DNA of 55,620 bases, the filler included, from Sluysia triapertura (lineage: Eukaryota), in the NCBI GenBank assembly GCA_046118255.1. It is 4 parts of 4 records of this genome, joined end to end, with 100 filler letters (N's around TTAATTAATTAA, not from the genome) between each part and the next. Parts side by side here need not be neighbours in the genome. Positions count along the whole stretch, not along the records: positions 1 to 10,778 come from JBJNIA010193605.1; positions 10,879 to 23,006 come from JBJNIA010136618.1; positions 23,107 to 38,912 come from JBJNIA010218140.1; positions 39,013 to 55,620 come from JBJNIA010200153.1. One strand, given 5' to 3'. Under the pieces are notes generated by a model. The model searched no databases and was not told the DNA's origin. It worked only from the letters and a program-made list of their open reading frames with translations. Shown here in pieces: positions 2,180-44,940 of this stretch. Position 1 is the first letter of the stretch. Each line of letters begins with the position of its first letter. Both the position numbers and the translations under genes were made by a program.

Positions 2180-2420
2180 ATATGCGTGTATAACTTTGTT
2201 TGGCAAGTTTGAGACATTTGATGGTGGTAAGGATTAGTTTGTAGCCCATGTACTTGATTGAAGTTTGGTTGGTTGGTTTTCTTGTTACCTATATTCAATT
2301 CAATATAAAGATTGAAAATATTTTGGTTTTCCTTGGTCAAATAGCTCGAACTTTGTCAATTATAGTGTTTTTGAAATACAATCTTCCGGGTTAATTTTGC
2401 AGTATCGTGCAACGGTTATT
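2180..2420 (-). mobile_element. Decayed mariner transposase relic, sense strand G-poor
   Basis: Minus strand gives FELFDQG and MGYKLI...CLKLA, remnants of the FELL..G and GYELLPHPPYSPDLA motifs. Confidence 0.4.
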
Positions 2421-3383
2421 TAAATAATATAAACTTATTCTTTTTCTTCACTTGTTAGAATAAATAGTGCTCAACATTTTATATTTACAAAGCATTTTAG
2501 AAGGCTTTTATGTAATGTTGTATTAAGATAGGCGTGACGTCTTAAAATAAATGAAATTTTACCAGGCATTACGCCCTTATTAAAAAATTAATATAAAAAT
2601 TTTTAATTTTTATTATGATAAAATTTTATATGATTTTAGAACTGACAAAGGTCTTGAAATAATTTTTAATCAAAATAATAATAATAATCAAAAAAATCTT
2701 CAGAATTAATTTAATACTTGTTTAAATAAGTAAAACTTTATGAATAGACAAATTTACTAAATCAAAATTAAAAAAGGTTGAAATTGATAGTTTGTTTGAC
2801 TTTGACGTTCTTGCTGGCCATGAAATTAGACAAACAATATCTTCCAAAAGTTGATGCACTTTAACCCGTGAAGCTCATTTTTAAAAATTTCGACAGAGTA
2901 CGTAGTTGTTTATATTTTAGTTTTCCAACGTTTGATGTATTCAAAATGTTTTCAAGAATTAATTTTCTGTTTGTGTTTAGAAAACTTCAATTAAATTTAA
3001 AATTTAATTATTTTCATATCAATTTAATTGTTTCAATATCACTTACATTCGATTAATATATTCGATTAATCTATTTCAGCTGTTATTTATGTATGAATGA
3101 CTTTTTTTGCTTTTTTCACAATTATTGATTAGTTAATGATTAATTATCACAATTAATGATTACTTATATTTTATGTAATTAATTTACATCAACAAGGTTT
3201 AATATTATATTTGAAATTATTATTATTATTATTATTAATATTATGATCATCTAATAAAAGCGAATTATCCTAACACATTTATATAATTTAACAATTAAAA
3301 TGCATGGTGATCATAAACAAAGTAAATTATGTGTTAAATATAAACAAAATTTTTAATTTGTATTCTAATTTATTTTATAATAG

Positions 3384-3614
3384 ACGGAATTATCCAAGTT
3401 TACAACGGATATACTTGTAGAAGATGTTGATACGATGGTTCGAAGTAGAAATATAAATCAGGAATTGGAAAGAAATATTAAAGGCGCAGAAAAAATAGTT
3501 GGAAAATATAACCGAAGACAGTTATGGGATAAAGTTCTTATTGCTATAGCTTTTATTTTCTTTATTTGTGTGTGTATTTATATTATTGCCAAAAGGATTG
3601 GGAAAAGCTTATAA
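3384..3614 (+). CDS. BNIP1: Terminal exon of the ER SNARE Sec20/BNIP1
   Basis: tag acceptor at 3383. Translates TELSKFTTDILVEDVDTMVRSRNINQELERNIKGAEKIVGKYNRRQLWDKVLIAIAFIFFICVCIYIIAKRIGKSL*, matching the Sec20 C-terminus (KYNRRE.TDK, TM helix, KR). Confidence 0.9.
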   Translation, partial: TELSKFTTDILVEDVDTMVRSRNINQELERNIKGAEKIVGKYNRRQLWDKVLIAIAFIFFICVCIYIIAKRIGKSL

Positions 3615-4169
3615 GTTATAATAAGATATAATTATGATTGAGTTATGTTTTACTGTATATTTTATAAAGAGGTGCTTTTATTTTTAAAATTAAAAATATT
3701 TTAAATTTTAACTAACTATATAAAATGCTTTACTAAATAATTGTTATTATTAAATTATTGGGCAAGGATAATATGCCTTTTTATTTAAATATAATCTTAT
3801 TGTGGAAAGTAAACATCGTTAACTCTTTGTGGTCCTTTGTTGAGGCACTAATTTAACAAACATTTATGTAATCTGTTCTGTCGAAGATGGTCCGTTAAGA
3901 AAATTTTTATATTTCGTATTTTTATTCGCATCGACCCATCATTATCGTCAAGTTCGGAGCACTGTACTAAATGCGAAGTATGAAGATATGTTTTATCGGA
4001 GTTGTACAAGTGTGATATTGTAAACAAATAGGAATATTTGTGTTATTATATTGCTAAGTTATATTATAAAGGATTACAAAAAAATAACCAGGCCATTAGA
4101 TATTTTATAAACTAAATATTACATAAATATAATATAAACGTAATTAAATTAATAAATAAATAATTTAGA

Positions 4170-4400
4170 TTCGATTTGAGTATGTATTTTGAGTCAGGTG
4201 TTTAATTGTGAAAATTTTGTGTTTTGGCTGTAATTAAATAGGACCTTTAGAGGATTCAATGGAAATAAAATAGGATCGCAAAAAGTTAAGTTACAAGTAA
4301 TCTGAATTTTTATAAACTTATCAAGTAAATAAGAAATTCGTCAACATTAAGTTTCACTTGCATAATTGCAATGCTGTGTGAACTTAGTGAAATCTTATAT
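4170..4400 (-). mobile_element. Probable 3' part of a decayed mariner transposase
   Basis: Minus strand SDYL...SQNTKF...IKHL resembles the mariner C-terminus; plus strand is C-poor at 4170-4240. Confidence 0.3.
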
Positions 4401-4559
4401 TTTTATTATGTTGAATTAAAATTACGTGTTAAGATTTTGATCGAAAAATTAGGAACGAGATAGAATCCTAGTCGTTAAGTAAACGTTAAAATATTTATTA
4501 AAATTTAATTTGTATGGTAAACTTTGTTGCGCATTAATGCTAGGAAAACAAATTTTTAG

Positions 4560-5340
4560 CTTCGTGATGTGTATGATTATATACACGTCGTTAAATTTTT
4601 AAACTACAACGCAGATGAGTATGAATTTCAATATATTCTAAACTATCACAAAGTATATAAAAATGAATCAATTCTTTTATAATAATTAATTATAATTCAA
4701 TATAAATCAGTTATTAAACTCAATCCTACGTCTGACAGGTGTGCATGTTATACCCAGATAAAAGTAAATTACCAATAAAACTCAAGATCCCACTAGCCAC
4801 GAACAAGTCAACTGAAAATGCAGTTTTATCAGTGGTTGACACATATATTGAATCAGCCTTCTTACGGCAGAAGAGTATTGTCAAAGTTAAATCCTACGTA
4901 TTGATTTAAGTTAACCTTTATAAAAAAAATTACAATAATTGTATTCTATATAAGTCATTCAAATGTAATCATAAGTAAAGGTATCTCAAATACAAAATAA
5001 ATAAGGGAACTATAAAAAATCTGCCAAAGGTCTTAATCAAACCTTCAGAGTAGATAAGATAAAATGAGATTAATCGCGTTTGAATGAATCATTACATGGT
5101 CTCGGTAAAAAATAAATGAATTACAAAATAATCATTCGCGCTGAATAATTCGAGAATAATAATATGCGTTAAAATCTATTACTTTTAAGACGAAGTAAGT
5201 TGGACTGAAGAACATTTCGATAAATAAAAATGTAGAGTGAAATCGAAAGGAAAGATGAAATGATGGCTAATAAAACCCTACAAGAAGTAGAAAGATTAGA
5301 GACATCTGAAAAGAATCATTTGCACTAAAGAGATTAACTG
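4560..5340 (+). pseudogene. Decayed multi-exon coding relic, unassigned
   Basis: Exon-like blocks with AG/GT borders (LRDVYDYIHVVKFLNYNAD; VCMLYPDKSKLPIKLKIPLATNKSTENAVLSVVDTYIESAF; EIERKDEMMANKTLQEVERLE) that do not splice into one open frame. Confidence 0.3.
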
Positions 5341-6020
5341 GTTTATTTTTGATTTTTCATTATTATTAAAATCCTATAGGAACGTCTCCAATATGGGTAA
5401 GAATCGTTTAATATAGGTTAACTATAAACTGACTTAATTTTGTGAGTTGATTTTAAAATAAGACATTTGCAGTATAAGACATTTTTGTGTATGAATGATA
5501 GGAAAATGCGGTCCTTTTTATAAATGTTTGGATAATTGCCAAAAAGTCTGTAATTCAACTTAATTATTGTGCATGTGAACAACACGCTACCTATTTCTTA
5601 GAGTCAGTTTTGTGCTGACCAATTTTAATATTCAAATTTGAACATTAATTTCCATCAAATTCCCATCTTAGTACTTTCCAGCAGTTATCCGAAGGTAACG
5701 AGTTTGTGACAAAGGGACTTTAACCTTTTCAGAATAGTATAATTAAAATTTAAGGTAATGGTTATAAAATTCTTATTGTTTCAATAAAAAATTAACTTGA
5801 ATTGAGCATAAATAATCAAATATAAAACTTATTTCCATTAATAACTTTTGGTACATCACATGCCAATTTCATTAATATAGATAGAACGATCTTTTAATGA
5901 GAATTCGTTTGATATATACTTTTACTGCATGTGCTCATTATAATACATAGAAGTTTAACTTTGTAATGAAGAAAATTAATTAAAACTAATTATTTTACTT
6001 TATCTACTTTGACATGTTTC

Positions 6021-6483
6021 CAGGACCAGATCTAGGATTTTGAACGCCCCGGGAAAAACAAAATTTGGTCCCCTTTCGTAAAAGAATATACAAATTTACT
6101 GCGAATTAAAAAAGTAAAAAATGCAACAAATCAAAATTACACAATAAAGAACTCTATAAAAACAAACTTTTTAGAGATAAAAAATCATTTTCTGCATCAA
6201 TGTTCTTAGGTTTCATTATTTTTATTAGTAAATTTTTGCTTGTCTTTTTTGAGCTATTATGAATTCTGACTATACAAATAGTTTTCTTATGAATAATATT
6301 ACAATTATTAAATATGTTTACAATATTAAAATAATTAGCGTTGTGACCTTTATGTGGTATTATTAAAGAAAAAATCGATGTCTCATGAAAAATGATCGAT
6401 TTTAATTTATAAAATCTAAAAAAATAATATATCGGCGCTCGGGCAGTCTCCCGGCTTGCTCACTCCTTTATCCGCATACTCTG
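6021..6483 (+). mobile_element. hAT-like MITE, copy 1
   Basis: CAGGACCAGATCTAG terminus, GC-rich subterminal motifs, internal blocks shared in inverted orientation with 33615-34143. Confidence 0.7.
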
Positions 6484-7163
6484 TCAGAGTTGGTATAACT
6501 AATAAATGTCATTGTATTTCATCATATATGATGCCCACTCATAAGTAAAGATATATGAGTTTCAAACAATTTTAATTAAATTGTTAAATAAATAAACATG
6601 TTTTTAAATAAATTAATATGTTTTTAAATTTTTGTAAAACGTGATCCTTTTGCTTTCAAGATGTTATTAAAAAATTAATATATAACTTTGGGCTTGTCTT
6701 GTCTTACACTGGAATTGTTCGTTCACTCGTCGTAGATGGAAATGCAAAATTTGATTGCCAAGATTCTAAATACTTAAAAACGTTAAAATTCAAGCTGTGC
6801 TCCTTAAAATCAAATGATATAAACCAAACTCACTAAAAGTTTATTTATCAAGTGTAATTAACAAATACAAAGTCTAGAAAAATAGTTCGAATAATATTCA
6901 CAATACAAAATATTTTAGGTGATTATAAACTTCTTTTAAAATTAAATTTAAATTTAACACTTGAGTTATTTTAAATGTTATTCTGATGAAAATTCACAAT
7001 TAAAATCAAATATTAATGTATTTTAAATTGTAAAATGTCAATTATTCAAATACCTTGAATTGGATACAATAAATACCTTGAACTCGAACAATGGTTTTGA
7101 TATTTTCAATGAGTAACTTATTCTTCTTCGACAATTGTAAATGTAACCACATAACTTCTTTTC

Positions 7164-7255
7164 CAAATAATAATCGTAAATTAAACCAAATATCTTCAAA
7201 TAATAATCGCAAATTGAATCAAATACCTTCAAATAATAATTGCAAATTGGATGAA
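7164..7255. repeat. 33-bp tandem repeat, about 3 units
   Basis: Unit caaataataatcgyaaattraaycaaatayctt; appears as the NNNRKLNQI repeats in ORF 7091..7366. Confidence 0.85.
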
Positions 7256-7460
7256 CCCACCTATTTATACTTGATTCTTTCCATAATAATGACATTTTCC
7301 CATTTTTGCAATACAGTAACATATAGTGTAATTACTTTTTTTAATATTATTTCATATGCACTATAGTCTAATTTCATACACACGATAGTTTGTTACTACT
7401 TTATAGTATATATGTTTGTGAGAGTGTGAAGTAAAGCAATAGAATAAAGTAAAGCTTAAC

Positions 7461-8794: not shown

Positions 8795-9300
8795 TTGGTC
8801 TGTGGTCAAAAAAAAACTGATTTCAATGTTAAAATGTCAGAAAATAGTAAACATAATCAATTTGATGATTGAATCAAAAACAGATAAATGTTGCAAAAAA
8901 TTTATCGAGAATTACTTCTAGTCAAGACAAGATGAATGGAAATTTACATTGTACAACATTACAAAATCAAACTTATCGTCACATAAATCATTAGTATGTG
9001 CAGTAAAAGATAGTCTACGAATTTTAAAATCATCATACAAACAAAATTCTAATCGTTTCAACAAATTAAGTAAATTTCAAGAAATTCGTTTACTGAAACT
9101 CGAATTAATAAAGTATTAATTGCCGAAAAAATTAATGAATACTAATTGTTTAGATTTAGTGAATCAAAACCCTAAAAGATGCATTCACATAGAATAGAAA
9201 CATTTAAGCACACACATCATTAACAACATACATTCATTTATCATTACATTCTCACATGTTCATATCACAATAACTGTGCTATGGTTTTAAGTAAACGTGG
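8795..9300 (+). mobile_element. Decayed mariner relic, sense strand G-poor towards the 3' end
   Basis: MLQKIYRELLLVKTR resembles the mariner N-terminal MLQK.YG...LS.TR; later RLLKLE, LVNQNP and ITVLW remnants. Confidence 0.5.
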
Positions 9301-10778: not shown

Positions 10779-10878
10779 NNNNNNNNNNNNNNNNNNNNNN
10801 NNNNNNNNNNNNNNNNNNNNNNTTAATTAATTAANNNNNNNNNNNNNNNNNNNNNNNNNNNNNNNNNNNNNNNNNNNN
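10779..10878. other. Artificial contig spacer N44-TTAATTAATTAA-N44
   Basis: Exactly 100 nt with a six-frame stop linker; identical at all three gaps. Confidence 0.97.
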
Positions 10879-11085: not shown

Positions 11086-11989
11086 ATATTCTCAAAAAAT
11101 GTTTTACTAAGTTATTTTTGTAGTCCTTAAGAAAATATAATAGATTTAAGAAGAATTCGTTAAAATGATTCAAAAATGAAATATATATTACGACGTCGAT
11201 AAAATTAGACAATACACAAAACAAATTTTGATTTTATTCTCTTTAAAACTATCAAACCTTTTATTTTAATAACTAATAAGACGAATTTTCTCAAAGTATA
11301 TTAATTATGTTACAATAACAATTTAATTATAATAAGCAATAAGTAATACATTACACAATTGACTGTTCTAAGTTAATTAAAAAACAAAAATTTAAACAGA
11401 TATTTTTCGGTAGAACCTTTAAATAGTTCTAAAATAATTTAAATTCATTTAATTTAAGTTAATTTAAAATAAACTAACGAGTAACAGGAAACAATAAATT
11501 AATCATCCAAGAGTCAGTTCCTTTACTAATTATCGAAGATTATCGTTAGAGTATTTTGTCGTTAAAAATGTGTAAATTATTATGTTACGCTGTTTTATAC
11601 TAGTTTTGTAACTGACCTTGACATTAACAAATTAAACAAAAGTAAAAACAAAAATATATTAATTTTTTAATTTAATTAAAATTACTTACGTTTTTCGATA
11701 TTGTGGAGAGGGCTTTTTATTTTTTAATATTCAAAATTTATAATTATTTTTGTTTATTTCTTTCCTTTTTTAGCATTTATTGCGGCATTAAATTTTGTTT
11801 TTAAATTTTTATTTAAGTTAAAAAATTTACCTCACAAAAAACAATTTAACTTTAACTTTAAAGCCATTAATAAAGTAAATAACAACTTAAACACATAACG
11901 TTTAGAAAAATAATAACGCTAATGAATACAGTTATTGAATGATGACTAACTATATTTTTAGAATTTATTTTTTCGAATACTGGATTTTC

Positions 11990-13190
11990 ACCACATACGT
12001 ATACCTTATTATCAAGAGTAGCTGCAGATGAGTGATTGCGCTTAAATATTAATGGTGCTACATATTCCAAACGATTTGTTTTATTATTATATCTTTCCAC
12101 ACTGGATAAAGTTTCCCAACCTTCACGATGTCCTCCAATAGCATATACTTGATTGTTTAAAATGACAGATGCAAAATAACGACATCCTTAAGTTGGTGTT
12201 GATGGTGACCATTAAAGAGTATGGAGTGAAAACTTTTGCATAGTACAAAACGCATGTAAAAATAATCATCCACTACGACTGTTTAAAAAAATCTCGTCCA
12301 AACGGTGTTTTATAGTAACGCGGCAAAATTGACTAAGTTTTATCACCATTATTAAATACTTTGATTTCACGATAGGGTGAACAAAACATACCTCCACCTA
12401 AAACTAAAATACATTGATGTGGTAACCATAGTTTACTTAAATAACGTGCTTCAGGTAAAACACGCATACCACGCTTACTGCGTAAAATTTGACACTTCGT
12501 TAATACTAAAGTCATTTTTGAAGAATGTGGCAAATTTTTATTTTTTCAATTGAATTTATTTCATTTAAAGTTAATCTAGCTAATCTTAAACAATTAATTA
12601 AATAAATGAATGTATTTCACTACTTTTAAAGTCACTTTCAATCCATTTAATAATAGCTTAAAATAAAATAATTTCATTTTGAATGTTAATTTTATCATCA
12701 TCCCGGGAATTTTTTAATTCTTCATAATCCAACATTAAAAATTCCATGTTTTTAGATATATCAGAAAAATTTTCAAGCATATATAAATTAATTTTTGACA
12801 TAATTGATAAATTAAGTCTCTTAGCCAGTTTCAAATAATCCCAACAATTATCAATTTATATTGCTCATTATGAAATTTTCACATGCTTCCAATAACGATT
12901 TTACATCATAACGTTTTGCTATATCACTAAGTCTTTCCACATTTTGTTGAATTATTTTTATTTCGCCAATATGTGCATATCGTAATATAATTTTATGATC
13001 CTTAGGATTATGACAATCGAAATTCAATTTACCATATCGACCAACAGTTTGTAATAAATTCCAAAACGCATTGCTAGTTTTAGCTAATTTAAACGCATTG
13101 CTAGTTTTAGCTAATTTAAACGCATTCATTATTAATTTTTTTGTTCCATTAATATATCTAGTTAAGAGCCATGGTATATTAAAGTTTGTA
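11990..13190 (-). pseudogene. Intronless BTB-BACK-Kelch pseudogene (KLHL10-like), copy 1
   Basis: BTB end (IILRYAHIGEIKI..QNVERL...LLEACENFI), BACK (DDDKINIQNEIILF.AIIKWIE) and kelch repeats (VYAIGGH...SVERYN...VAPL...RNHSSAATLDNKVYVCG), with stops and frameshifts. Confidence 0.88.
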
Positions 13191-13409
13191 ATTTTTTAAT
13201 CAATAAATAATATTTTTTAAGTTTATTATAATTTTTAGTTTTAAGTTAAATTTTAACCTTAACCATTTTTTCCTAATCTATTTTTAATTGCTAAATTTAT
13301 TTAATGGTGTAATTTTCTTTTAGCTCATACTAGATCTAAATATACAATTTATAGGTAAAAATAGGTAAACATAAAAAATTGTGGTATAAATAATGTTAAA
13401 CTTTTCAGA

Positions 13410-17488: not shown

Positions 17489-17489
<1 letters not shown>

Positions 17490-19338: not shown

Positions 19339-19969
19339 CTTTGAATTCATTTTTCGGGCATCCCTAATTTGTTCAAATTGTCTTCTTCCTCTTTTTTGGG
19401 TGTTCCATTTTCTTTTGTCCCTGTTTTATAATAAATATAACAAAATAAAATAGTTTCTGAATAGGACAACTACAATTTTTCACTTACCTTTGTACTTGTA
19501 TTCTCCATTTCCAATTATGCTCTTCTTTTGTGTGCTTATTTTATTTTTATTTGTAATTTTAAAAATAAAATAAAAAATTTATTTCCTTTTCATTTACACT
19601 CTCTTTCTCGTTTATGTTTGTTTAACCGTTTTATAATTTGTCATAATCCTCTTCCCATTTTATTCATGTATTTTGTATATTTTGTATGATGGTATGTCTG
19701 TGTAGAGAGGGCGTTTTAGATTTAAAAATTCGAAATTTTAATTATTTTTGTTTATTTCTTTTCTTTTATAGCAATTATTCGAAACATTGAATTTTGTTTT
19801 TAAATTTTTATTAAAAACGTTAAAAAATTTACTTAAGAAAAAACAATTTAAATATAACTTTAAAACAATTAATAAAGTAGACTTAAGGCCTTTTGTAAAT
19901 AACAAATTCAACAAATAACAAAGGTGGAATTTATTTTTCAACATAACATTTCGAAAAATATAAATAACG

Positions 19970-21016
19970 TTAATAGACAAAGTTATTGAATGTTTTCCAA
20001 CTTTTACGATGTTCTCCAATAGCATATATATCTTGCATTGGTGCTGATGGTGACCATTGAAGAATATTCAGTGAAAACTTAAATACTGATAGTGTTGGTA
20101 AAAACTTTCCGCATAGTCCACCAAGCATGTAAAAATAATCGTCCATTTCGACTGTTTCAAAAAAAACTCGTCCAGTTGGTATATTAGAATAACGCCGCAA
20201 AATTGACCAAGTCTCATTACGATAGGGTGAACAAAACATACTTCCACCAAAAACTAAAATACATTGATGTGGTAAACGTGGTCTACTTAAATGATGTGCT
20301 TCAGGTAAAACACGCTTATCACGCTTAGCTAATACCAAAGTCAATTTTGAAGAATGTGGCAAATTTTTAACCATATTAATATTTTTAATTAAATTTATTT
20401 CATTTAAAATTAATCTAGCTAATCTTAAACAGTTGAGTAAAGATATTAAATGTATTTCACAAATTTTCAAGTCATTTTCAATCCATTTAATAATAGCTTG
20501 AAATAAAATAATTTCATTTTGAATGTTAATTTTATCATCATCCAGCAAATTAAAAATTCAATGTTTTTAAATATTTCAGAAAAATTATCAAGCATATACA
20601 AATTAACTTTTGACATAATTGATAAATTAAGTTTCTTAGCTAGTTTTTAATGATCCCAAAATTATCAATATTAATATTGCTCTTTATGAAGTTTTCACTT
20701 CTTTAAACAACGATTTTACATCACAACGTTTAGTTATACCAATAAGTCTTTCCACATTTTGTTGAATTATTTTTATTTCACCAATATGTGCACATCGTAA
20801 TATAATTTCATCTCGACCAACAGTTTGTAATAATTTCCAAAATGCATTACTAGTTTTAGCTAATTTAAATACATTTATCATTGATTTTTGTGTTCCATTA
20901 ATATACAGCTCTCTAGTTAAGAACCATGGCATATTAAAGTCAAATAAACAATCGGGGTTCATAATTTTTTTTATCATTAATTTATCTTTCTGCTTACATA
21001 AATTATTGATGGACAA
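19970..21016 (-). pseudogene. Intronless BTB-BACK-Kelch pseudogene (KLHL10-like), copy 2
   Basis: ORFs 20684..21016 and 19970..20548; SRPRLPHQCILVFGG and YFYMLGGL...WSPSAPM motifs; frameshifts and internal deletions; colinear with copy 1. Confidence 0.88.
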
Positions 21017-21814
21017 ATTAATACATAATATCTATTAAATTTATTAAAATTTTAGTTTGAAATTTTTTTTTAATTTAACCAATTTTTCTCAATAAATGTA
21101 TAATTGTTACATTTATTTAATGGTATAATTTTCTTTTAACTCATATTAGATCTAAATATATAATTTTTGGGTAAAAATATGCAAACACAAAAGTTGTGGT
21201 AGAAATAGTGTTAAATTATGTGTTGATTTGAACTTGGTGACGATGGTGATATTGATGATGATTCAGATGATGTATGGGCACATTTTTCTTATGATTGCAA
21301 TGCAGGTGGAGAAATGGTTGTAGTTTTATTGGATGGAAAATATGGGTTTCGAATTGCTTGAAAGTGCGGGTTATGAGAGAATGGTACTTTAATAGGTTCC
21401 TTTTTTGATGTGGGGTTTCATTTTCAAGATCCCCTAATTTTACATCAGAAATAGAAGAAGAATAAAAGAATAAGAAAAAAGGTTGAAGGTATAGATAAGA
21501 GAAATAATAATTATCAATAACGAATAACGAATTTATTATATATTTTAAAATAATGGTGTAATAATATTATTATAAAAGTTATTATATGACAATCATGGTA
21601 ATCATATTATATGGCAATAATCATAATAATTATTATATGTTTTAATATGATTTGATTTATAATAACAATAACTGTAGTTTATGACAATTATATACAATTT
21701 TTTTGGCTTTCTCTATCATTAACAAACAATTTTGTGATCTCCACAATTTAGCGTACTATATTGTATGTACTATACATGTAAAACCTGTTATACTGTTAAA
21801 GTACATGTTTTAAA

Positions 21815-21881
21815 TTCATCGAACTGTTCAGCAAGAGGTCCCGTGTTCGATCCCCGTCAATCCATTTTATGAAGTCTAACA
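21815..21881 (+). repeat. tRNA-derived (3' half) SINE-like repeat, copy 1
   Basis: B-box/T-arm GTTCGATCCCC, ends CCA-TTTT, shared tail atgaagtctaaca; no 5' half or A-box. Confidence 0.75.
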
Positions 21882-22349
21882 CAATAAACTTATCAAGTAA
21901 TGATTTCAAACTTTTTTAAGAAAGGAATTCTGATGTTATTGATGAAAGCATAGGTAGATGCGTTCAGTTATCTCATGAAGGACTATTGCTTACTTATTTT
22001 GTTGCATCTTATTCTTCAACAAAATATTTGAATCAACTTATATACTATCTTTCATTTAATCAAACATTGAGTTTTTTATCATGAGTTATGGTTATTGTTA
22101 GCATATATTCCATTGTAATAATAATTCTTATAATAATTTCATATAATAATTCTTTTAATAATATCACAATACTATCAACATTATCATATTAAAATATATA
22201 ATAATTCTATTATTGTTATCATTATGATTTCTGTTATTTTCACAACTAATCTTCATTTTATTCTTTTTTTTGTATTAATTTGTATATATTTATGTATGTG
22301 TAATTCTGATCAATTTACTTTCGAAGCTATTATGAAACTATTAATCAAA

Positions 22350-22830
22350 AGTATCAAAAAACTATTCTAAAATGTTGGAAAACAATTGCTTTCTCCAAAA
22401 ATCCTCCTGAAATTAACTACTAGACACTTACAAATCAATTCAAATATTCAAAATTCATGATTTTTATCACTTAATCCCTAACATCACAGAAAGACAATAT
22501 TACTTAAAATATCAAGAAAATAAATCACATTTTCAGCATTGTATAACCATCTCTTGAACATAACCAAAATCATATCATTTTTAACATCACATAATTACCT
22601 TTTAGAATATACCAAAACATAGCCTATGATCTATCTTATTCACATCCACTAAACTACTCTTTTTCAACATACTTATAATTCATAATCTTTTAACATCCAA
22701 ACATAAATGTACATTTATGATCAATTTTAAACATTTATATTATCTCAAAATACCTTCTACACTCAAATTCGTCTTCAATAAGAAACATTAAATAGCATTT
22801 AAAAATTCACTTGAGGCATTCCACACATTA
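22350..22830 (+). mobile_element. Mariner relic with G-depleted sense strand
   Basis: Remnants NPPEIT TRHL, IPNITERQ, F*HHIIT (FL.RIIT) and SYS..P.NY.LF; 12 G vs 59 C in 22441-22740. Confidence 0.6.
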
Positions 22831-23006: not shown

Positions 23007-23106
23007 NNNNNNNNNNNNNNNNNNNNNNNNNNNNNNNNNNNNNNNNNNNNTTAATTAATTAANNNNNNNNNNNNNNNNNNNNNNNNNNNNNNNNNNNNNN
23101 NNNNNN
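23007..23106. other. Artificial contig spacer
   Basis: N44-TTAATTAATTAA-N44. Confidence 0.97.
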
Positions 23107-23899: not shown

Positions 23900-24850
23900 A
23901 GTACTGATAAACATGTAAATCTGATGTTAAACGCATAAACTATTTGACCAATAATAAGCTATGATAAGCTCTAAATATTTCTTGTTTTATTTGTTAGATA
24001 TGACATATTAAATATTATAAACTAAAGTCTGTATAAATTTGGCTAAGCTAAATGAAAATAAAGCAACATGTTAAAATTACAATTACGGTGAATTATCGAT
24101 AATGGTGTCAAAGTAAATATCATGATGGCCAGTAACATCCGTGAAATTAGGTGGAAGATCTTGAACTTGAAATTAAATACCTTTATTGATGATGGTATAA
24201 AGGTATTATGTTATCATCAGTCTATCGATAAATGATGTTAAAGTCAGTGATATTAAATTAGAAGTATGTAATCTAAAGAATAAATGGATTTGTACATCCA
24301 AAATGCTCTATCGGTTATTAAAGATAAAGCAAAATTGGAACTTCACAAATTACTAAGGTATGCCATGATTGAAGAAGAATAATATGAATATTGTTCACCT
24401 TTCGTGCCAATCGCAAGGCAATTGGTGAATAGTGCAACGAAGAACGAGGTATTTCAAAAACCATCTTTACAAGAATGGTGTTAAATTAGCCTCACTACTC
24501 AACACAATGAAACAATGAAACACTTGAGTAGTAAAAAATATTTAATTTTTTCGTTCTCCATTTGGCCTTATCTCTACTTTGAAGATTTCAAGAGTATCAG
24601 GAGCATATTATAAACGATCATAAGTGTTACTGTGTTACGTAGATGCTTCAAGTAGGGGACATGATTCAATTTTCAGAAGGTTTTGAATCGTTTAAAAGCA
24701 TTCACTTCGATAATAAATGAAGACAAGTATATAATTTAGAAAAAATACTTGTAACGACATAAATCTTCTGAGACGTATGTTAATAAAAATAGCATTAGAC
24801 TATGCTATTTATACTTCAACATTGCATTGATTATTTACTACAAGACAGAT
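23900..24850 (+). mobile_element. Decayed Ty3/Gypsy protease-RT fragment
   Basis: IDNGVKVNIM (protease), KLLRYAMIEE, EYCSPFVPI, RSPFGLIS and CYVD motifs in the expected order, with many disablements. Confidence 0.8.
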
Positions 24851-25713: not shown

Positions 25714-27221
25714 CATTGCCTAGTATAATCAATATTTTATAGTATTAAATATTACAGTATTAAACATTCTATTACTCTTTCTAATTCTGTTCGAGTACTT
25801 ATTGAACCTACTACTGAAATATAATCTCTAATGATTTAATGAAGCAAACATGTTAGGATTTATTTTAAGTAGTTTAATTCATTTAACAATGTTCATCAAA
25901 GGTATACTTGATTAAATCCAGTGATTTAACATTCCGGAATATCTGAGTTACTTATGAGTTAATTAAACACAAACTTCCGCCCATTATGAAACATTACTTT
26001 TTTAGAAATGTTAAATAATGAGACACTTAAAAATTACAAGTACTCATCTTAAATGTCTTTTATATTCCTTCTGATAACAGGTATTAAAAAAATTAATTTT
26101 TGCCTTGCATAGGCTGAATTCCAAATAGAAATAACATGATATCAATATCTATAATAAAAACGTATGATTTTTAAGGTAAATATTGACGCTACCTGATTGG
26201 ATAGATTGTCGTATTCTAAATTCAGTCTTTAGGGTTATTTCTGCACAGACATAAAAATTGATAGCTCAAATTTAACAAAATACCGTCTAAAAATTGACTA
26301 TAATTATTCAAAGCATTTAAGCATGGATTTCAATTTCAAAGGTAAATTTATTTTATTATTATTTTTAGATGTTTTGTGATAAAGTTCACATTCGACATTG
26401 AATCCTTTTCGAGTATAATGGTGGTTCCAAAGTTGCTTTAAGTTTTAATAAAGTCTTGGTACAGTTGAAAAGTGATTTCAGTGTTTACATAAGAAAAATG
26501 TGATCAAGATCTGGATGACATTCAGAACTGGAAAATGATGCTTTGAGCACACGTTTTGAATCAAAGATACTAAAATGCAACATTTTCGTTCCAAATAATT
26601 TGATAACAGAGCAGAAGTTTCTAAGAGTTTCATTTGTAACTTCTTTACTATCAAGAATGAGTAATGAACCTTTTCTGTTGCGTAAGATGAAAAATTTGTA
26701 TTGTAACATAATCAAAGTTTCAAAAAAGCAGTGACTTCTTCTAGGTCTACTAAAGTGACACGCACCCAAAAAGTGTTTCATACATTATGAAATATTGAAA
26801 ATTGGTGAAAATATATCGACTTATGTCAATAATTGCATAGGTTGCAGAGGAAAATGTTAGAAAACGTATAATTTTCTTCGACTCAAAATGGAATTAAAAA
26901 AGTTATTAATTTATTAATAATTAATTTATTAATGATTAATTTATTAACTAAATATATTTGGAATTTATAAATATATGTATTTTTATACTATTTTTCTTTC
27001 CGTAAAAACAGTTTTTCAACATAATATTGATAACTCATAAAATCAATGACTTCTAAGACACTGTGCACAGTCTTCCAATAATTTGACATTCTCCAGTTAG
27101 TCGTTATTGATTTTCGAAAACAATCACAAGCCAATACTAATAATATTATTATATACTTTAAGGAAACTTCTGTGATATTATGGTCTCTGAAATTGTTTAA
27201 GAATTTCAAAATATAAGTATT

Positions 27222-28803: not shown

Positions 28804-29285
28804 ATGGAATGATCTTTGTGTTCTTAAAATTTAATATTATATTGTCTTCATAGAATCTCAATTTAAAATGACAATTTGATTTTTTAAATTAATATAAAGC
28901 ATTGTAATCTTAATGATGATGATTTTATTTTTACTTTGAAATAATTTTATAAATTTAAGTTAAATAAATTTTGGATTTCATTTGAAAACTTGAAAATTTA
29001 AAATAATTGAAAAAAGAAAAATTGAATATTATGTTTTATTTGAGCAATAGTATTTTTTACCAGAGCCTTCAAGAAACAGTAGATATAATCGTTTTAAGGT
29101 ACCGTTTATTCTTTCCACTATTCAATTTGTTTGTGGATAGTTTATCTGCGTAATCATGTTATTATTATCCCTAACCCAGAAAAAAGGAATTTAATTGCTT
29201 AATGTAGAAAACAAATAAAAAATTCAATTTTACCAAATATTTTTAAATTAGTGAAATTTTTTATTTTAACAATATATTTCAGTAC

Positions 29286-30599: not shown

Positions 30600-31090
30600 A
30601 CGTAGTAAGGATTAGAAAGTATAAAATTAGTAAATGAAGTAACAAAAATATTATTAACAATAATTTTAGTAATAAAATTTAAAAGTATGATGAATTTTGA
30701 TTGTAAAATATGAGATTGTTAAAATGTATGAAAATTGTTCTTGTGTTTCATCTATGTTGTTTGTTGATCTGATATTTTGTGTTAGATTATGCTAAAGTTT
30801 GTTTAGGATTTGTATTTGATTGTGTTGATGTTTGCCATTAATTAGAGTGTTTTGATTATGAGCTCACCACAGTCCACTGCATCAATACTGCATCATTATA
30901 ATAATATAATAATATTTTTCCCTTTACAAATTCATCACTCAATTATATTATGTAACACAGCTCAACATGTAGAGTTACATACAAAAAAGTTACGATCTTA
31001 GATATTCTTGTCACTATATTCATGATAAAATGGATCAAGTTTATCGATATCGAGTATTTCAAAATTCAGAATTAACAAATCACAGAAGAC
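30600..31090 (-). mobile_element. Mariner relic with an internal skew switch
   Basis: Minus strand DPF...IVT, DA.G.V.EL, NINTIKY (TINA..Y) and TIFIH.N; homologous to 40830-41050. Confidence 0.6.
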
Positions 31091-33419: not shown

Positions 33420-34322
33420 ATAATACTAATAATATATTGATTTAAGCGCTCATATACTGCAAAATAAATACTCAAAAGCGCTTAAAATAAATCATTCACC
33501 ATAATATTCCTAAAACAGAAAAAACTTTGCCTTTTTCTTAAATATTTCACAATCATCCATTAATTTGACATTCTCTGGTAACTGGTTACATGTTTTTGAA
33601 ACATAAACAGTATAAAGGAGCGGGCATGCCGGGTTCCAAATAAAAATAAAATATGTTTTACATTTATTATTTTTTTAGATTTTATAAATTAAAATCAATC
33701 ATTTTTCATGAGACATCGACTTTTTTAGCAAGCAATAAATTTTTTTCTTTAACAAATAAGTCACAACGCTAATTATTTTAATACTGTAAACTGTTTACAA
33801 ACTCATTTTCAAAAAAATTAATTTAATAGCATTATAAAAATATTGTATGTCACACGTATGCAACAAGAATAGCATAACTTACTTTTCAAAGTTCTCGCTG
33901 CTTCGTCGCTCAAACTTCAAATGCGTTCGTTATGTTATTCCATACGTTGTATCGCTTTTAAGTAAATAACTATTGTATTATTTTTTTAAATAAATTTTTT
34001 ACACAGTTCTTTATTGTGTAATTTTGATTTTTTTTGCCTCTTTTACTATTTTTTCTAATTCGCAGTAAATTTGTAAATTCTTGTATGAAAGGAAGCCAAA
34101 TTTTGTTTTGTCCGGGGCGCTCAAAACCCTAGATCCGGCCCTGGTGGTGTGCAAATATCACTGTGGATTCTGAAATGATTTTCAAGTCTCAATGAAATGT
34201 TTATCTTTGTTTCTAAATTTTTTATTATTTCTAACAGATATTATTGTCATGATTTTAATGGCAACCAATGTAATTCCTTTAGATAAGATGTTACATGAGA
34301 TCTTCCCACTTGGAGAATTCTT
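33420..34322 (-). mobile_element. L2-clade LINE 3' fragment interrupted by a hAT MITE
   Basis: HVT.YLKELHWLP motif and an agcgcttttgagta...gagcgc...(tat)n tail; colinear with 39625-40330. Confidence 0.8.
33615..34143 (-). mobile_element. hAT-like MITE, copy 2, with a nested ~130-bp palindromic insert (33840-33975)
   Basis: Terminus CAGGGCCGGATCTAGG; inverted homology to 6021-6483. Confidence 0.75.
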
Positions 34323-35899
34323 TTAACAAATACAATTATAGTCATACTAAAAATTACTTACAAAGTTCTTACAAAAACAAAAACGCATAATAAAAGTAAA
34401 ATATAAATTACGTGAATTAATAAAATTCAACGGTTTTTCTTAATTTATGAGATTTTATTAGACTAATTTTACACTCGGCTGTAAAGTAGTTAAAACAAAT
34501 ATATTAAGTGCAACTTATTCAAAATGAACTAATGTATTTGTGACGGAAGTGAAAATCCTTAATTCCGAATTAATAAATTTGTGATCGAACGCAAAAAAAA
34601 CCAGCAAATAAAGTTTTAAATGAAATTCTTTTCTGTCTCACAATAAACTTTTTAATTAATTAATAAAAGTTAACAGTTATTTGTGTATTTCCTTTTTGTG
34701 CATTAATGCGCTTGCGCGCATTTATTTATCGTCATTTTCGATGATAACATTAAATCTATTTTTGTATTCTGCAACTTTATAGGGTCTTTAAAATTATTAT
34801 TATTATCATCATTATATTATTATTATTATAAAAGAATCATTTTTACTGTTTGATGCTATTATTATTATTATTATTTGATTTTATTATTACTAATTTATTA
34901 TCATTGTTATGATTTTTGTAAATATTACATAATTACTTATGTCCTTGACTGTATCAAATCGGTTTATGATTAGTTTTTCTATCTGAACTCATCTGTGATG
35001 GCAGAAGCGGAAATGCAACTTTTATAATTAAAGTTACACACCCAAAAATAAATTAAATATTCATCACGCGAAGTTATAATTAATGATAGACAAATTAATT
35101 TTAAATTTTAAATCAGTTATAATATTCATTGTCATAATTCATGGCAATCATCATTAACATAACCAATGCATTAATTATTATTTCAATTGTATTTTTATCA
35201 CTGGTATTTACTGTAATCAATATATTTTCAATTCTATAGTTAATATTATATAAATGATTTTCATAAATCTATTAACGTGATAACAATTAATTAATTTATT
35301 CTTACATATACATTGATTTAGTGATCATATGGTGGTTTGGAATAGTGTTTTTGTTAATATTTTTCTGTTTTATAATTATGCTTTTTCGCTTTTAATTTGC
35401 CAATTAAACATATCAAGTTCTATTTTTAATTTTCTTTTATTTATTTATTGATTTAAGAACATTGTGAGATGTTTATTCCTTGATTTCACAACTTTTTACA
35501 GTTTCTTTTAATACCACTGAGATTATTAAAATATTAGTTTTTTTTTTAGATTACTTTTATTAATTTACTACGAAAATTATTATATTATCATAAAAATAAT
35601 CTTATTCGAAATTTTGATAGGTTTATCATATAGAATACAAAATATTCAGTCAATATTTATTTTAATTTTGAAATTAAAATATTAATTATTAATTCATTTA
35701 TTAATTTTTTAAATCTATAATTAAATAATATTTTTGAACAAGTTTACGTATTTTTTTATTTTAGGATTTAAGTTTTTATAACTTTTTAATATACTTTAAG
35801 AATACAAAATCAACTAATAAAAATAGAAACAAAACATTTAGAATAATTTGATATAAGTTCAATTCAGTGAGTCAAACATTCTACAACATTACTGAATTC

Positions 35900-38850: not shown

Positions 38851-38912
38851 ACACTTTACTAGTAAATAAATGCATGAATTATAATATGACCAAACCATTT
38901 TTTCAGGCAATA

Positions 38913-39012
38913 NNNNNNNNNNNNNNNNNNNNNNNNNNNNNNNNNNNNNNNNNNNNTTAATTAATTAANNNNNNNNNNNNNNNNNNNNNNNNNNNNNNNN
39001 NNNNNNNNNNNN
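38913..39012. other. Artificial contig spacer
   Basis: N44-TTAATTAATTAA-N44. Confidence 0.97.
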
Positions 39013-39192
39013 TATGAGTTAGTGAGGTGTTGTGATTATCAAATGTTGTTTTATGATGTTTGTGTTGGTGTAATTCGGAAGTAAAAAAATATGATTATTG
39101 TGAAGATTGCGTTTTAGTGAAATTTGATTTATGAATATAAGATTTGATATTTTATTAGGTATGAATTATGAGTGTTGTCCACTACAATCATA
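39013..39192 (-). mobile_element. Mariner relic with G-depleted sense strand
   Basis: Minus strand DCSG...FIPN...LP......NIIKQH-DN..PH; plus strand has 40 G vs 3 C in 39013-39177. Confidence 0.6.
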
Positions 39193-39624: not shown

Positions 39625-40330
39625 GATTAATAATAATAATATATTAATTTATATTGCGCTCATATCTACTGCGAAAGTACTCAAAAGCGCTTAAAGTAAA
39701 TAATTAACCGTAATATTTCTGAAACAGAAAGAACTTTGCTTTTTTCTTAAATATTTCATAGTCTTCAAGCAATTTGTATATTTTTGAGACAAACAGTATA
39801 CAACCTATCACCTAGCTTGTTATCACTTTCGATCCTGTATAGATTATTGTGTCAATGAAATATTCATCTTGGTTTCCAATTTTCGTATTATTTCTAAAAG
39901 GTATTCAGGACTTCCGTAACGTAAGCATTTGTAAATTATTGTCATGATTTTAAATTCTATTTTTACTTTCATTGGCAACCAATGTAATTCTTTAAGATAA
40001 GGTGTTATATGAGATCTTCCAACTTGGAGAATTAATTTTGCTGCTTGATTAATTATTAATTGTAATTTTCACTTTCTATCTGAAATTGAAAATCTATGTT
40101 GCTAATTCTCATTGAGTGAACAATAAGTTTAGCTGTTTCTTTATTAATATTTTCGAATATGTGATATCTTATTTAATTGATATTTACACTTTTTAACAAT
40201 ACAATTAATATTTTCTTCCATGTTCATTTTTGAATCGTATAATAACCTATATTTCGTACTTTCTGCTTTGCATCGAGTGTCTTGAAATATTTTAACTGAA
40301 AATTTCTCAATAAAAACTTATTTCAAAAAC
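39625..40330 (-). mobile_element. L2-clade LINE 3' fragment
   Basis: KLQLIINQAAKLI...RSHITPYLKELHWLP...IEFKIMT...FKKKAKFFLFQKYY* followed by an L2-type tail. Confidence 0.88.
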
Positions 40331-40479
40331 TTTAACTATACATTTAGTTGGCTATATTTTTATTGTAATATAAAATATATTGTAATATATTGTAATAATT
40401 GAAAAATTAATTTTGTTATTTGAACTAAGATAACAATTTATGCAGACTATACAGTGAGAATACAATAAGTGATACTTTA

Positions 40480-40546
40480 TGTTAGACTTCATAAAATGGA
40501 CTGACCGGGAATCGAAACCGTCCCTCTCGCCGCACAGTTCGATGAA
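40480..40546 (-). repeat. tRNA-derived (3' half) SINE-like repeat, copy 2
   Basis: ttcatcgaactgtgcggcgagagggacggtttcgattcccggtcagtccattttatgaagtctaaca on the minus strand. Confidence 0.75.
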
Positions 40547-40829
40547 AAAAACATGTATTAATATATTATGTAAAATTCTTCCCTATTTAAGGAAGGAAGG
40601 TCTTTTCAATTTCACTGTAAGAATCAGGGATTTTTCGACAGACTTTGTCTTCGCTATGGTATTAAGAAGTTTTATTATTATCATCTTTGTATTTTCACTA
40701 TGGTCTTGCAAAGTTTCACCATAGTCTTTAAGCCTTCACTGTAGTTTATAACTGTTGTCTTTTTAATCTTCACCATAGACCTATTTGTTTATACTAGTGA
40801 ATTATTTTTAGGTCATGATGTTTTTTATT

Positions 40830-41050
40830 TGTTCCCATCATTTCAGAACGCATTAGCTGGTGACTCCACAGCCAGTTTCAGACAATTTTTATAATATATT
40901 ATAAAAATTGTGCTTGTGTTTTATGTATGCCGTTTGATGATTTGATACTTTGTATAAGATTCTGTTGATGTTTGCCTATGATTAGAGTGTTTTGATTTGT
41001 AGTTTACCATAGTATTTATTATAAACTCAAAAATAAACAAAGCATCCAGA
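40830..41050 (-). mobile_element. Mariner relic, same subfamily as 30600-31090
   Basis: MLCLF remnant; block tgttgatgtttgcc...attagagtgttttgatt shared with 30823-30857. Confidence 0.55.
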
Positions 41051-41102
41051 TTGTAATAAATCTGAACCAAAAATCATTATTAAGCCTCTTTTTAAAACAA
41101 TA

Positions 41103-41182
41103 TTAACACATTATGAGCGGGGCGGGTATTAGTACCCGTTTTATGTACTGTCACTTAAGAATACCCGCTCATAATGTGTTAA
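41103..41182. mobile_element. Tiny piggyBac-like MITE
   Basis: TTAA-CACATTATGAGCGGG...CCCGCTCATAATGTG-TTAA. Confidence 0.82.
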
Positions 41183-41863
41183 GTTATTTTTCACTGTAAG
41201 ACAAAAAAAAGAAAATTTGTTATTATTTGTACCTAATACATTGAAAATACTATTTTTGGAAATTTATATTAAGAGAAGAAAATTTAAGAAACCTGCATTG
41301 GGTATTTTCAAATAATTTTATAAATTAAATTTAGTATAATAAAATTATAACCTAAATTTGTATTTTAGCACCATTCGTTTATGCGTTATCTAAAATAAAT
41401 TTTTAGTCAATCATTTTGATTTTGTGAAGTTTGAAAAATATTTCAGTTTCATTTCTAACGATAAATTAAATTAAGGATTAAAAATAACTCGTTAATATTT
41501 AAGTTTTGTAAAGATTGAGATTTTTATAAATCACGAATAATTTTAAGATTAAATCAAGTAAATGTTTAAAATAAATTTTTATTTTTTAAATAATTATGAA
41601 ACAAACATGAGTTATCGATTGAAAATAACAGATTGAAAAATACAAATTATTTTAAATAAAGTGATAAACTGTTACTGTTTAAGTTCAAAACTAAAATTTT
41701 TATCAATCACTAATCACAATTAAAAGAGTAGTTTTAATTTCGATGTGGAATCATCACATAAGGATAATTTATTAAATTTATAACTTAAAGTTATAAGATA
41801 CTTTATTTACTTCTTTTAACTTCACTAATAATAGTTAACATTACTTATAAGTTTAAAACATAC

Positions 41864-42048
41864 CCATTTTCAACAGCTAAATCAAAAAGTTCTACATAAA
41901 AGTGCTCATCTTCTTCATACGTTTCGTCATCTAAAATTTTAATAGCAATAGTGCACTGATTTTCATGTGGCAAAAATTTCAAAACACCACTTTGAGCGAC
42001 ATAATCACTTCCAGCTAATGCTGTTCCATCTGTTGTTTTATACTTTAC
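41864..42048 (-). CDS. NCX: Na+/Ca2+ exchanger exon, Calx-beta (CBD1) second half
   Basis: VKYKTTDGTALAGSDYVAQSGVLKFLPHENQCTIAIKILDDETYEEDEHFYVELFD; ttcag acceptor, gtatgt donor. Confidence 0.93.
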
Positions 42049-42379
42049 CTGAATAAATAGTTTACATATATGGAAGTGTTACAGTCAATAAATAAAAATA
42101 CGAATATGTTTGAGAAAAAATTTTAAAGTAATATGACAATTTATAATATATGAAGAATAATGACGCCTTCAGGATAATTTTCCAGATGTTTTATTATTTT
42201 AAAAATGAGGAAATTAATTAATTTTTAATTATTTCTAAAATGAAAACTCCTTTTATTTTAGAAATTATCATATTTTTTATTAATTATGTTGGGAAATTTA
42301 TTTAATGCACCATAAATTTAGAATATTTTAAAATATTCAAGATTATTTTCTATGCTATAAAAATATTAATTAGTTTGCT

Positions 42380-42556
42380 TTAACACATTCTATGCGAGCT
42401 ATTTTACTACAATCCAAGCTGAAAATATTTGCACAAAAAACAAATGTTTCAGTTTTTCATCTTATGATAATTTATTTATTAATTTATTAAAATATTTATT
42501 AAAATTATTACTATGTGCAGAACGTGTTAACTCCTTTCCCGCAAAGAATGTATTAA
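42380..42556. mobile_element. piggyBac-like MITE in the NCX intron
   Basis: TTAA-CACATTCTATGCG...CGCAAAGAATGTA-TTAA. Confidence 0.65.
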
Positions 42557-42559
42557 TAA

Positions 42560-43260
42560 TTATTTAAATGTCATGAAGAAGATATACGGTTAGCAATTCT
42601 GGTTAAGCTTCAATACAAAAAAGATAACACATAAGGTCAAAACATTACAGATTTATATTTCCAGAATGTTTAAAATGAAAAAGTTGCTCAAAAAAGCATT
42701 ATTAAGAGATAGCACATCTTTTATGAGTTATCTAAAAATAACTTTGATAAAAATGTAAGTCATTCAACAAATAAAAGGTTAATGAAATGATTATTTTCAC
42801 AAGCCTTGGTACGAAAATCTCAACTTGCTACATAAGTCACAAAAAAATTAATGATTAGAACGAAAAAATCGTAAATTTAACAAATGAAAAATGTCATTTT
42901 TAGATGAATCAAAATGCGAAATAATTTCTGTTGAAAAAAGAAAAATAAATAATCTATTTTCGTATCTCAAGAAACAATGAAATTCCCGGCATCAAGTATG
43001 ACATTAATATGTATTTCAGTTAGAAGTACAAGATTCGATGCTATTTTGGAAATTTAAAGATTGCAGAACTCTTAAGAGAATTATGTATAAAAGCAAGACA
43101 ACTTTCAAAAAGAAGTGTTAAAATAACTGTCATTAACTGGCTACAAAATTCAGAAGATCTTGAAATTTCGAAAAGTAAACCGCAAAGGAAAAGTTTACAT
43201 AACTTGGTAATCCCAAAAATATAAAAAATTATTTGTTTTGGTTCAACATTTATACACATC
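42560..43260 (+). mobile_element. Tc1-like transposase relic in the NCX intron
   Basis: KNVIF-DESKCEI (first catalytic Asp motif) and MTLICIS (VMVWGCIS remnant). Confidence 0.6.
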
Positions 43261-43695
43261 ATGTTTTCCTAAAATATTAATAGTTAAGTGCTTGAATACC
43301 AGTGTTTCTTATAAAAAAATATTTAATACAATATCTTTTCAAAACTGAGGATTATATTATTGATGTACATGTTTGTGTATTTCTTTTAAAATAATTTAAC
43401 TATTTATGGCCTGAAAGGATGCTTTTGGTTTCTTAGAAATAAGTAAATTAATGTTATAACAGAATCAAAATTAGGTCCAACTATTACTATATTAAATCAT
43501 TACACAGATTCAATAGTGCAAACACATTAAATTAAAAATATTCATTGATCAACTCGAAACATTATTATAAATTTAAATATTTGTAACTGTAGATAAACGA
43601 AAATATTAAACCTTTGCAAAAATACTTTATAATCTATAAATAAAGCATTTTATATATTTTTTATACTATTCAGTACAAATACAACGAAAACAAAC

Positions 43696-43889
43696 ATTTA
43701 AAGTTGATTCCATATATCCACCACTTCGTTTAACTATCATGTTTACTAATCGAGCATTTTCCATCACCGTATAGTGCAGCGGATCAAAATAAACAACTTG
43801 TTCTTTCATATTTTTATTTCCTTCAGAACCTTCATCGTCAACCACATTTTGTAATTTAAGCAAATATTCTGACATAATGTTAACCCCAC
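43696..43889 (-). CDS. NCX: Na+/Ca2+ exchanger exon, start of CBD1
   Basis: GGVNIMSEY...VVYFDPLHYTVMENARLVNMIVKRSGGYMESTLN; ttgcag acceptor; phase-0 donor joins 42048 in frame. Confidence 0.92.
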
Positions 43890-44199
43890 CTGCAAAACAT
43901 ACGATTGAATATTGTAAAATTTATGTAAATCACTATAAAAACTTACAAGCATTAAATGAAAAATTTATGCGAATAATTTTAATTATCTGTATTAAATGAA
44001 TTCATCATTAAGTACATAAATGCTCAGTTCAGTATCTAAATCGTTAACAAATTGAAGCAATTTTTCTCTACCTATTTTGAATGTGGTATTTTTATGTAAA
44101 ATTTAATAAATTAGATAGTACTGTAACGATGATAATTTACTTTCGACGTCAGTATATACTTAACAAATTAGCTAATTGGGACGGGAAAAATATGATTTT

Positions 44200-44940
44200 G
44201 GAAAGTGGCGTGCATCAAACATCGAATTCTTTTCGTTTATGAAATTATGCTGATAAAATATGTAGTCTTTTGCTCGTGCAAAAGTTTACTAAAGTGGCTT
44301 TTGGAATCTGATTTGGAACCAGAAAAAAGTACAATAGACCGTTGCGAAATCATAAAATATTATATTAATAAACCTGGAATGTTTAAATATAACATAGAAA
44401 CTCAATCATCATAAACAATACTACACATTCATAACATCTTAACAACAACTCGATTAACACTTTCAACCATTCACTCCACACATTACTTCGATATTTAATC
44501 TCGAATAATTCATAATACTCACTCATAAGATACTCTATCAAACAAACCATAACCATAATACATTATACAGAAATCATAAATACAATAACACCATTTAACA
44601 ACGTTAACAAATACTTCAGAAATAGAAAACATTTACATTAAAATCTTTAACCAACCACACCAAGTTAAAGCTACTTCATTTATACATATCCATTATCATC
44701 AACATTTATTCCTAATAACATTATAAACACGTTAAGATTATTTCGTAATCGTCTTTTAAAACTAAAATAACTTTGACCTTTCATTAAGCATCTCAAACTT
44801 ATTTTTAATTACAAACTTTTAATAAATTTCAATAAGCTTTCCTAACATTATTCTTTTCAATTACAACTCGATTCATTCCTATTTCATTTAAAGACAGACA
44901 ATTAAGCTTTTAACAATTCATTATCTTAATAAGAAGCAAC
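44200..44940 (+). mobile_element. Mariner relic with extreme G depletion of the sense strand
   Basis: HRILFVYE, TIDRCEI, QPF..HIT, FIPNNIIN and YS.QL..D.FLFHLK remnants in mariner order; 10 G vs 73 C in 44401-44700. Confidence 0.65.

Follow-up and report, generated by a model that had tools for sequence, protein, structure and literature searches.

Four tracts in a stretch of the Sluysia triapertura genome (assembly GCA_046118255.1) are strongly depleted of G on one strand, and conversion of C to T along one strand is, on modest evidence, the slightly favoured cause. The stretch, hereafter the window, is 55,620 nucleotides (nt) long, filler included, and together with the reference sets gathered for the analysis it forms the evidence base. 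The tracts, at 44398–44892, 22389–22770, 39013–39178 and 30602–30862, had been described in an earlier note, along with four weaker ones, as relics of mariner transposase genes in which the cytosines of the antisense strand had been deaminated. Their skew is a real compositional anomaly, and its tie to mariner is not supported.

Pooled on the G-poor strand, the four main tracts (1304 nt) contain 545 A, 278 C, 44 G and 437 T. The strongest, 44398–44892, is G-poor on the plus strand (18 G, 107 C), as is 22389–22770 (14 G, 82 C). The other two are G-poor on the minus strand, with plus-strand counts of 40 G and 3 C at 39013–39178, which abuts a gap, and of 49 G and 9 C at 30602–30862. In 200-nt windows, five tracts lie beyond a |z| of 4 (6.15, 5.64, 5.58, 5.48 and 4.81), whereas 300 block-shuffles averaged 0.29 such tracts and never had more than 2; their largest 200-nt skew reached a |z| of at most 5.0 (95th percentile 4.4). 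A best-segment score, for which the chance maximum over 200 shuffles had a median of 9.3, a 95% point of 12.5 and a top value of 15.3, was 35.1 for the 44398 tract, 26.7 for 22389, 17.6 for 39013 and 15.2 for 30602 (tracts being named here by their first position). All nine G/C counts given in the earlier note were exact on recount, and the extreme skew reported there holds for these four tracts, which exceed chance. The remaining four, listed near 40900, 9180, 2180 and 4170, are within chance, their best segments (40932–41006, 4.2; 9209–9275, 8.3; 2195–2280, 6.6; 4173–4276, 7.2) all scoring below the median chance maximum. A fifth strong tract, 21189–21418 (score 18.7; 67 G and 14 C on the plus strand), was absent from that note. 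It has a period-3 bias and an acidic frame interrupted by stops, matches no Pfam family and reads as an acidic coding remnant, so such skew can come from coding content alone.

The edge of the 44398 tract is sharp, with C rising from about 6 to 14 and G falling from about 10 to 0–3 per 50 nt. Just 3′ of this tract, a hairpin at 44937–44982 (in a fold of 44925–45000) has its Gs intact. A (TAA)23 array and a gap begin 168 nt beyond the 3′ end of the 22389 tract. The 30602 tract is the first copy of a dispersed repeat and contains an internal duplication of about 33 nt; the second copy, at 40900–41013 on the minus strand, is 74% alike to 30727–30838. Thus the weaker 40900 tract, whose own skew is within chance, proves to be a further member of the 30727–30873 repeat. 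Tandem repeats are absent from the 44398, 39013 and 40900 tracts, and those in the 22389 and 30602 tracts are confined to two- to three-copy repeats of 8–15-nt period at the edges. None of the main tracts has period-3 autocorrelation, and the complexity of the 44398 tract is mildly reduced (z −2 to −2.8). Decayed microsatellites were rejected as the origin of the tracts, the sequence being complex, without tandem structure or period-3 signal.

Base composition, a comparison of copies and the context of the surviving Gs suggest that G was lost on one strand. C makes up 21% of the pooled tracts against 12% window-wide, as expected of an insert of about 40% GC that was stripped of G. The only homologous tract pair, 30727–30873 and 40900–41013, 10 kb apart in the window, differs on the plus strand by 8 C/T changes versus 1, 2 or 4 G/A changes, depending on the alignment (p 0.0003–0.0055). 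Hand-set blocks gave 8 C/T differences with 5 shared C and 1 G/A difference with 20 shared G (Fisher p 0.0005), and a BLAST alignment gave 8 versus 4 (p 0.0055). The rare-base differences run both ways, each copy keeping another subset. Set against a null of a C-free ancestor with background transitions, the pair gave p values of 0.011–0.019 or 0.098, again by alignment. Among the surviving Gs, GA/AA stands at 34/231 versus GT/AT at 10/193 (p 0.004), a ratio of 2.84 (95% interval 1.4–5.9). Uniform loss from 57 natural open reading frames (ORFs), both strands, gave a maximum of 2.09 for the same ratio, and four unmutated G-poor long interspersed nuclear elements (LINEs) gave 0.65–1.2. In the 44398 tract TG/TA is 1/66 versus 15/86 for AG/AA (p 0.003). 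From these features we infer that the tracts once had more G and lost it.

Several observations weigh against such a loss. One of 19 other repeat pairs (33421–33567 and 39628–39776; 10 G/A versus 4 C/T differences, p 0.009) shows a similar transition asymmetry, the duplication of about 33 nt within the first copy of the 30602 repeat shows none (3 versus 3), and the TG bias is found in one of the four tracts only (pooled p 0.19). APOBEC3 enzymes prefer TC and CC, leaving a GA/GG pattern, and the motif of AID is WRC; the context of the surviving Gs fits neither. CC is depleted on the G-poor strand to an observed-to-expected (o/e) ratio of 0.51, the minimum in the 57 natural ORFs being 0.64, and one-strand loss does not explain this deficit. 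The total GC of the tracts, 22–26%, equals the window mean, and both members of the 30727/40900 pair are G-poor, with no G-rich partner. No source element was matched in any library searched, so the direction of change is not polarised against an ancestor.

The claim that the tracts coincide with mariner transposase remnants was borne out for none of the eight, whether by DD34D, subfamily, maT/rosa or Pfam comparison. DNA was aligned with proteins by a frameshift-tolerant codon aligner, which took the local background into account and was run under three models (neutral, G>A and C>T). The DD34D reference comprised 134 of 152 proteins, the remaining 18 longer ones being scored on five tracts, and the whole-window DD34D scan covered three of six strand/model sets. 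The long tracts, 44398 and 22389, scored 11–16 bits with the DD34D profile under all three models (shuffle maxima 15–20) and gave p values of at least 0.12 with 14 subfamily profiles; on the real mariners of the window, which served as positive controls, the same profile scored 233, 131 and 39 bits. Trials in which 500-nt pieces of the two younger mariners were simulated, with 80% of G removed and as much as 20% decay added, recovered the piece 57–100% of the time. Because such pieces were recovered and neither long tract scored above shuffles, protein comparison makes it unlikely that the 44398 and 22389 tracts are DD34D transposase. The six short tracts gave no clear score above shuffles: their lowest p value was about 0.04, reached in two of 48 tests that did not concern the strand and direction proposed earlier, at a sensitivity such that simulated 110–200-nt pieces were recovered in only 3–100% of trials (110-nt pieces in 3–78%, and pieces of the oldest relic mostly missed).

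This negative result covers transposase proteins; Tc1 DD34E, pogo/Tigger and non-coding mariner ends lie outside it. Profiles of maT (DD37D) and rosa (DD41D) drew on 50 and 19 proteins respectively, 69 of the 115 loci having yielded a protein of at least 80 amino acids, and had no positive control in the window. Their scores on the tracts did not exceed 21 bits, and where a score passed the highest of 20 shuffles it did so by no more than 4 bits. The five longest inverted repeats per tract region included no convincing enclosing pair of terminal inverted repeats with a TA duplication, ends that relics often lose. Without an element identity the tracts have no sense strand, which leaves the proposal that the sign of the skew follows element orientation without support.

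The mariners that can be verified are unskewed. They comprise a DD34D relic at 47315–48092 (plus strand; 124 G, 135 C), the N-terminal part of another at 46640–47170 (minus strand; 90 G and 95 C on its own sense strand) and an older relic at 26378–26680 (plus strand), absent from the earlier note, whose sense strand is richer in G than in C (55 G, 41 C). The segment 47581–47760, previously presented as a balanced mariner, is indeed real and balanced. Tabulated on the sense strand against the nearest proteins at fixed codon positions, the two younger relics show G>A at 9/84 versus C>T at 11/66 (p 0.34) and 9/45 versus 4/26 (p 0.76), and none of the three mariners carries the sense-strand G-to-A excess that the deamination model called for. 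An L2-type LINE C-terminal relic at 39847–40068 (minus strand) has G>A at 7/14 and C>T at 0/12 fixed sites against its nearest protein; with so distant a reference, conservative amino-acid change may account for the excess. A second L2-type piece lies at 34253–34324.

Other families likewise gave no match. None was found among 82 of 86 LINE proteins, including those of loci L191 and L197 (tracts at most 21, in-window L2 control 57), or among 113 of 120 Mag-gypsy homologues plus L001, the latter a weak test in that the profile missed the in-window gypsy control. All long frames of loci L001–L116, and Pfam, Rfam and PDB (one frame), were also negative for the tracts, as were Tc1 DD34E, pogo/Tigger, hAT, Helitron, Bel/Pao, copia and Penelope in plain Pfam scans only. 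Matches of the tracts in 539 kb of locus DNA, searched with a three-letter alphabet, were no better than those of shuffles. Apart from the 30727/40900 pair, the tracts do not align mutually above shuffles, despite their one common composition, which counts in favour of conversion. Matches seen by eye to integrase, reverse transcriptase (RT), maT and RTE motifs failed scoring and were rejected. A k-mer test that preferred a mariner sense strand with G>A change by 15 log units was dropped, because among random 1.3-kb pieces of the window the same preference has a 95th percentile of 14.9 and goes up to 23.

The reading that is tentatively preferred, at somewhat less than an even chance, is that the four tracts are fragments of inserted mobile DNA in which cytosines were converted along one strand of an unpaired intermediate. 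Mobile DNA of a family without a match here would have inserted and left the four tracts as fragments, its cytosines having turned to thymine in one burst that acted along a single, unpaired strand. The substrate would be a single-stranded intermediate, most plausibly retroelement complementary DNA (cDNA), the form that APOBECs edit, or else a rolling-circle strand, and an AID/APOBEC-like enzyme is the putative agent. The skew, the sharp edges, the absence of tandem-repeat structure, the two copies of one family and the unaffected mariners are the observations from which this scheme is built. In a broader version, which is unlikely, a host deaminase system would act on several unrelated new inserts, converting the majority of cytosines on one of their strands in a context unlike that of vertebrate APOBECs, leaving G-free scars genome-wide and sparing cut-and-paste mariners. 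One-strand C-to-T conversion survives from the earlier proposal as the slightly favoured cause of the tracts; its tie to the transposase antisense strand is without support, no tract having been shown to be mariner. If true, one-strand hypermutation scars in an invertebrate would offer a candidate substrate and a testable motif for AID/APOBEC-like enzymes; if the tracts were born G-poor, they amount to an unremarkable quirk of composition in an unannotated family of repeats.

That second origin, which the earlier note had named, as a G-poor family consensus, among the refutations of its own model, is a substantial, if doubtful, possibility, almost as probable as the first. The tracts would descend from one or more elements, or from organelle DNA, with a strand that was G-poor from the outset, such as an A/C-rich LINE or its long untranslated region, and would be remnants decayed by neutral mutation. 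It needs no special enzyme, fragments of one long element could yield all the tracts, and it sits well with the G-poverty of both copies of the 30727/40900 pair. Further points in its favour, and against conversion, come from L191, an intact endonuclease–RT LINE that has 8.8% G over a 2811-nt open frame and, in a 450-nt window (344 nt in frame), 16 G and 107 C, close to the 18/97 and 22/88 of the long tracts. One strand of Drosophila telomeric retrotransposons is similarly called ‘extremely G-poor’ in PMC5537684. The tracts, however, match none of the 82 LINE proteins with which the L2 relic of the window was detected, and they differ from L191 in CC o/e (0.51 versus 1.11) and in having more A than T, whereas L191 has more T than A. 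The copy comparison and the context bias of the surviving Gs also lean against neutral decay, and the mitochondrial version found no Pfam match under codes 5 and 9 and no Rfam match. The open frame of L191 lies on the minus strand at 1248–4059 within a bacterial genome bin; many of the fetched LINE loci, like L191, are eukaryotic LINE contaminants of prokaryote assemblies.

It is improbable that the skew reflects an artefact of assembly or library, such as damaged or converted reads, or the decay of a simple repeat. Two of the four tracts lie at or near gaps and the 44398 tract has its mildly reduced complexity, but the missing tandem repeats and period-3 autocorrelation, the two diverged copies 10 kb apart and the partial rather than complete conversion are at odds with such an origin. 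Very little probability attaches to the opposite change, in which T became C on one strand of very AT-rich DNA and A became G on the other. The tract GC at the window mean, the enrichment of CA (o/e 1.39) and the depletion of CC would suit it; T-to-C change should nevertheless leave AA, AG and GA unchanged, and their ratios are 0.91, 1.23 and 1.35 in the tracts versus 1.04, 0.79 and 0.96 in AT-rich DNA of the window, and the pair copies share most of the abundant base (18–20 shared). The model of the earlier note, in which a host defence against DNA transposons deaminated the antisense strand of what are now mariner relics, is very improbable. The skew is real, and short tracts of 110–260 nt could be mariner pieces below detection, yet no tract rose above shuffles in the DD34D and subfamily comparisons or stood out with maT/rosa profiles, simulated hypermutated pieces of the younger mariners were recovered, the real mariners are unbiased, and DNA transposons lacked strand-biased clusters in PMC4866542. 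Host transcription is an unlikely cause of the skew, given that the mid-gene exchanger exons at 41848–43920 have tracts of opposite sign on their two sides, on contiguous sequence.

These two exons, on the minus strand, belong to a Na/Ca exchanger, with similarity to its first Calx-beta domain (E 1.7e-20; also recognized by Pfam); further exchanger exons sought in the window with Pfam were not found. Together with BACK-kelch relics and one Sec20 exon, also recognized by Pfam, they identify the window as animal DNA. Its GC content is 24%, and its CpG o/e of 1.02 gives no hint of CpG decay. The segments 11700–13400 and 19700–21215 form a pair of duplicated BTB-BACK-kelch genes; both are degraded, they are 74% alike over 1.2 kb, and the transitions between them are balanced (47 versus 41). 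Old traces of Ty3/gypsy RT and integrase at 24050–24800 (plus strand; score 29) and 29092–29187 (minus strand; 28–32) are without skew. A short repeat with a B-box-like word, present in three copies at 21810–21886, 40477–40557 and 54215–54292, is, as judged by eye, probably a tRNA-derived short interspersed nuclear element. A 189-codon frame at 53136–53705 (plus strand) has no Pfam match; its C-terminal motif is one that we take to be that of an R2/NeSL-type endonuclease. Long hairpins or palindromes at 41094–41191, 40882–40911, 45190–45249 and approximately 1953–1993, among them 28-nt arms, a perfect 30-nt palindrome and 18-nt perfect arms, are possible ends of elements resembling miniature inverted-repeat transposable elements or Helitrons; the perfect 30-nt palindrome adjoins the 3′ end of the 40900 tract. 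The gaps at 10779–10878, 23007–23106 and 38913–39012 each have 100 bases, two runs of 44 N around an identical 12-base AT-only linker, and two of the three follow (TAA)n arrays.

In fungi, repeat-induced point mutation (RIP) causes C>T change of CpA type, and one round can mark a single strand. The 44398 tract resembles its products in its CpA-type loss, whereas the host here is an animal, the bias is present in one of the four tracts, and the other repeats and the mariners of the window are unaffected. RIP finds no support as the cause, since CpA-focused C>T change across repeats was not seen (TG depletion in one of four tracts; repeat pairs and mariners unaffected).

A literature search, with most subscription journals and supplements outside its scope, found no report of strand-polarised hypermutation of animal DNA transposons, in keeping with the earlier statement that no such system is known. 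Sense-strand G>A editing by APOBECs is described in vertebrate long terminal repeat (LTR) retrotransposons by Knisbacher and Levanon (PMC4866542); as far as the available part of that paper reports, the screen detected no editing in 19 invertebrate genomes or in DNA transposons, which counts against conversion here. Invertebrate AID/APOBEC-like enzymes exist, and some deaminate single-stranded DNA, according to the accessible portions of PMC5889660 and PMC5956068, which give no transposon footprint or genomic target for them; these enzymes would supply a single-strand cytosine deaminase in a non-vertebrate animal. Like edited vertebrate LTR elements, the tracts show a clustered, strand-biased deficit of G, which in the conversion reading is confined to the insert, with different Gs kept in different copies. 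For the vertebrate cases, unlike the tracts, the element, its sense strand and an unedited source have been established. Unlike the GA/GG pattern of APOBEC3, GT was lost more than GA in the tracts, and the WRC pattern of AID was not found in them. Compared with HeT-A, TART and TAHRE, the Drosophila telomeric retrotransposons, and with L191, the tracts are alike in having one strand on which G makes up 4–9% and C about 22% for hundreds of bases; they differ from such G-poor non-LTR elements in their lack of protein similarity to LINEs and in their CC deficit. From DD34D mariners they are set apart by the three true relics of the window, which are unskewed and which the skewed tracts do not match.

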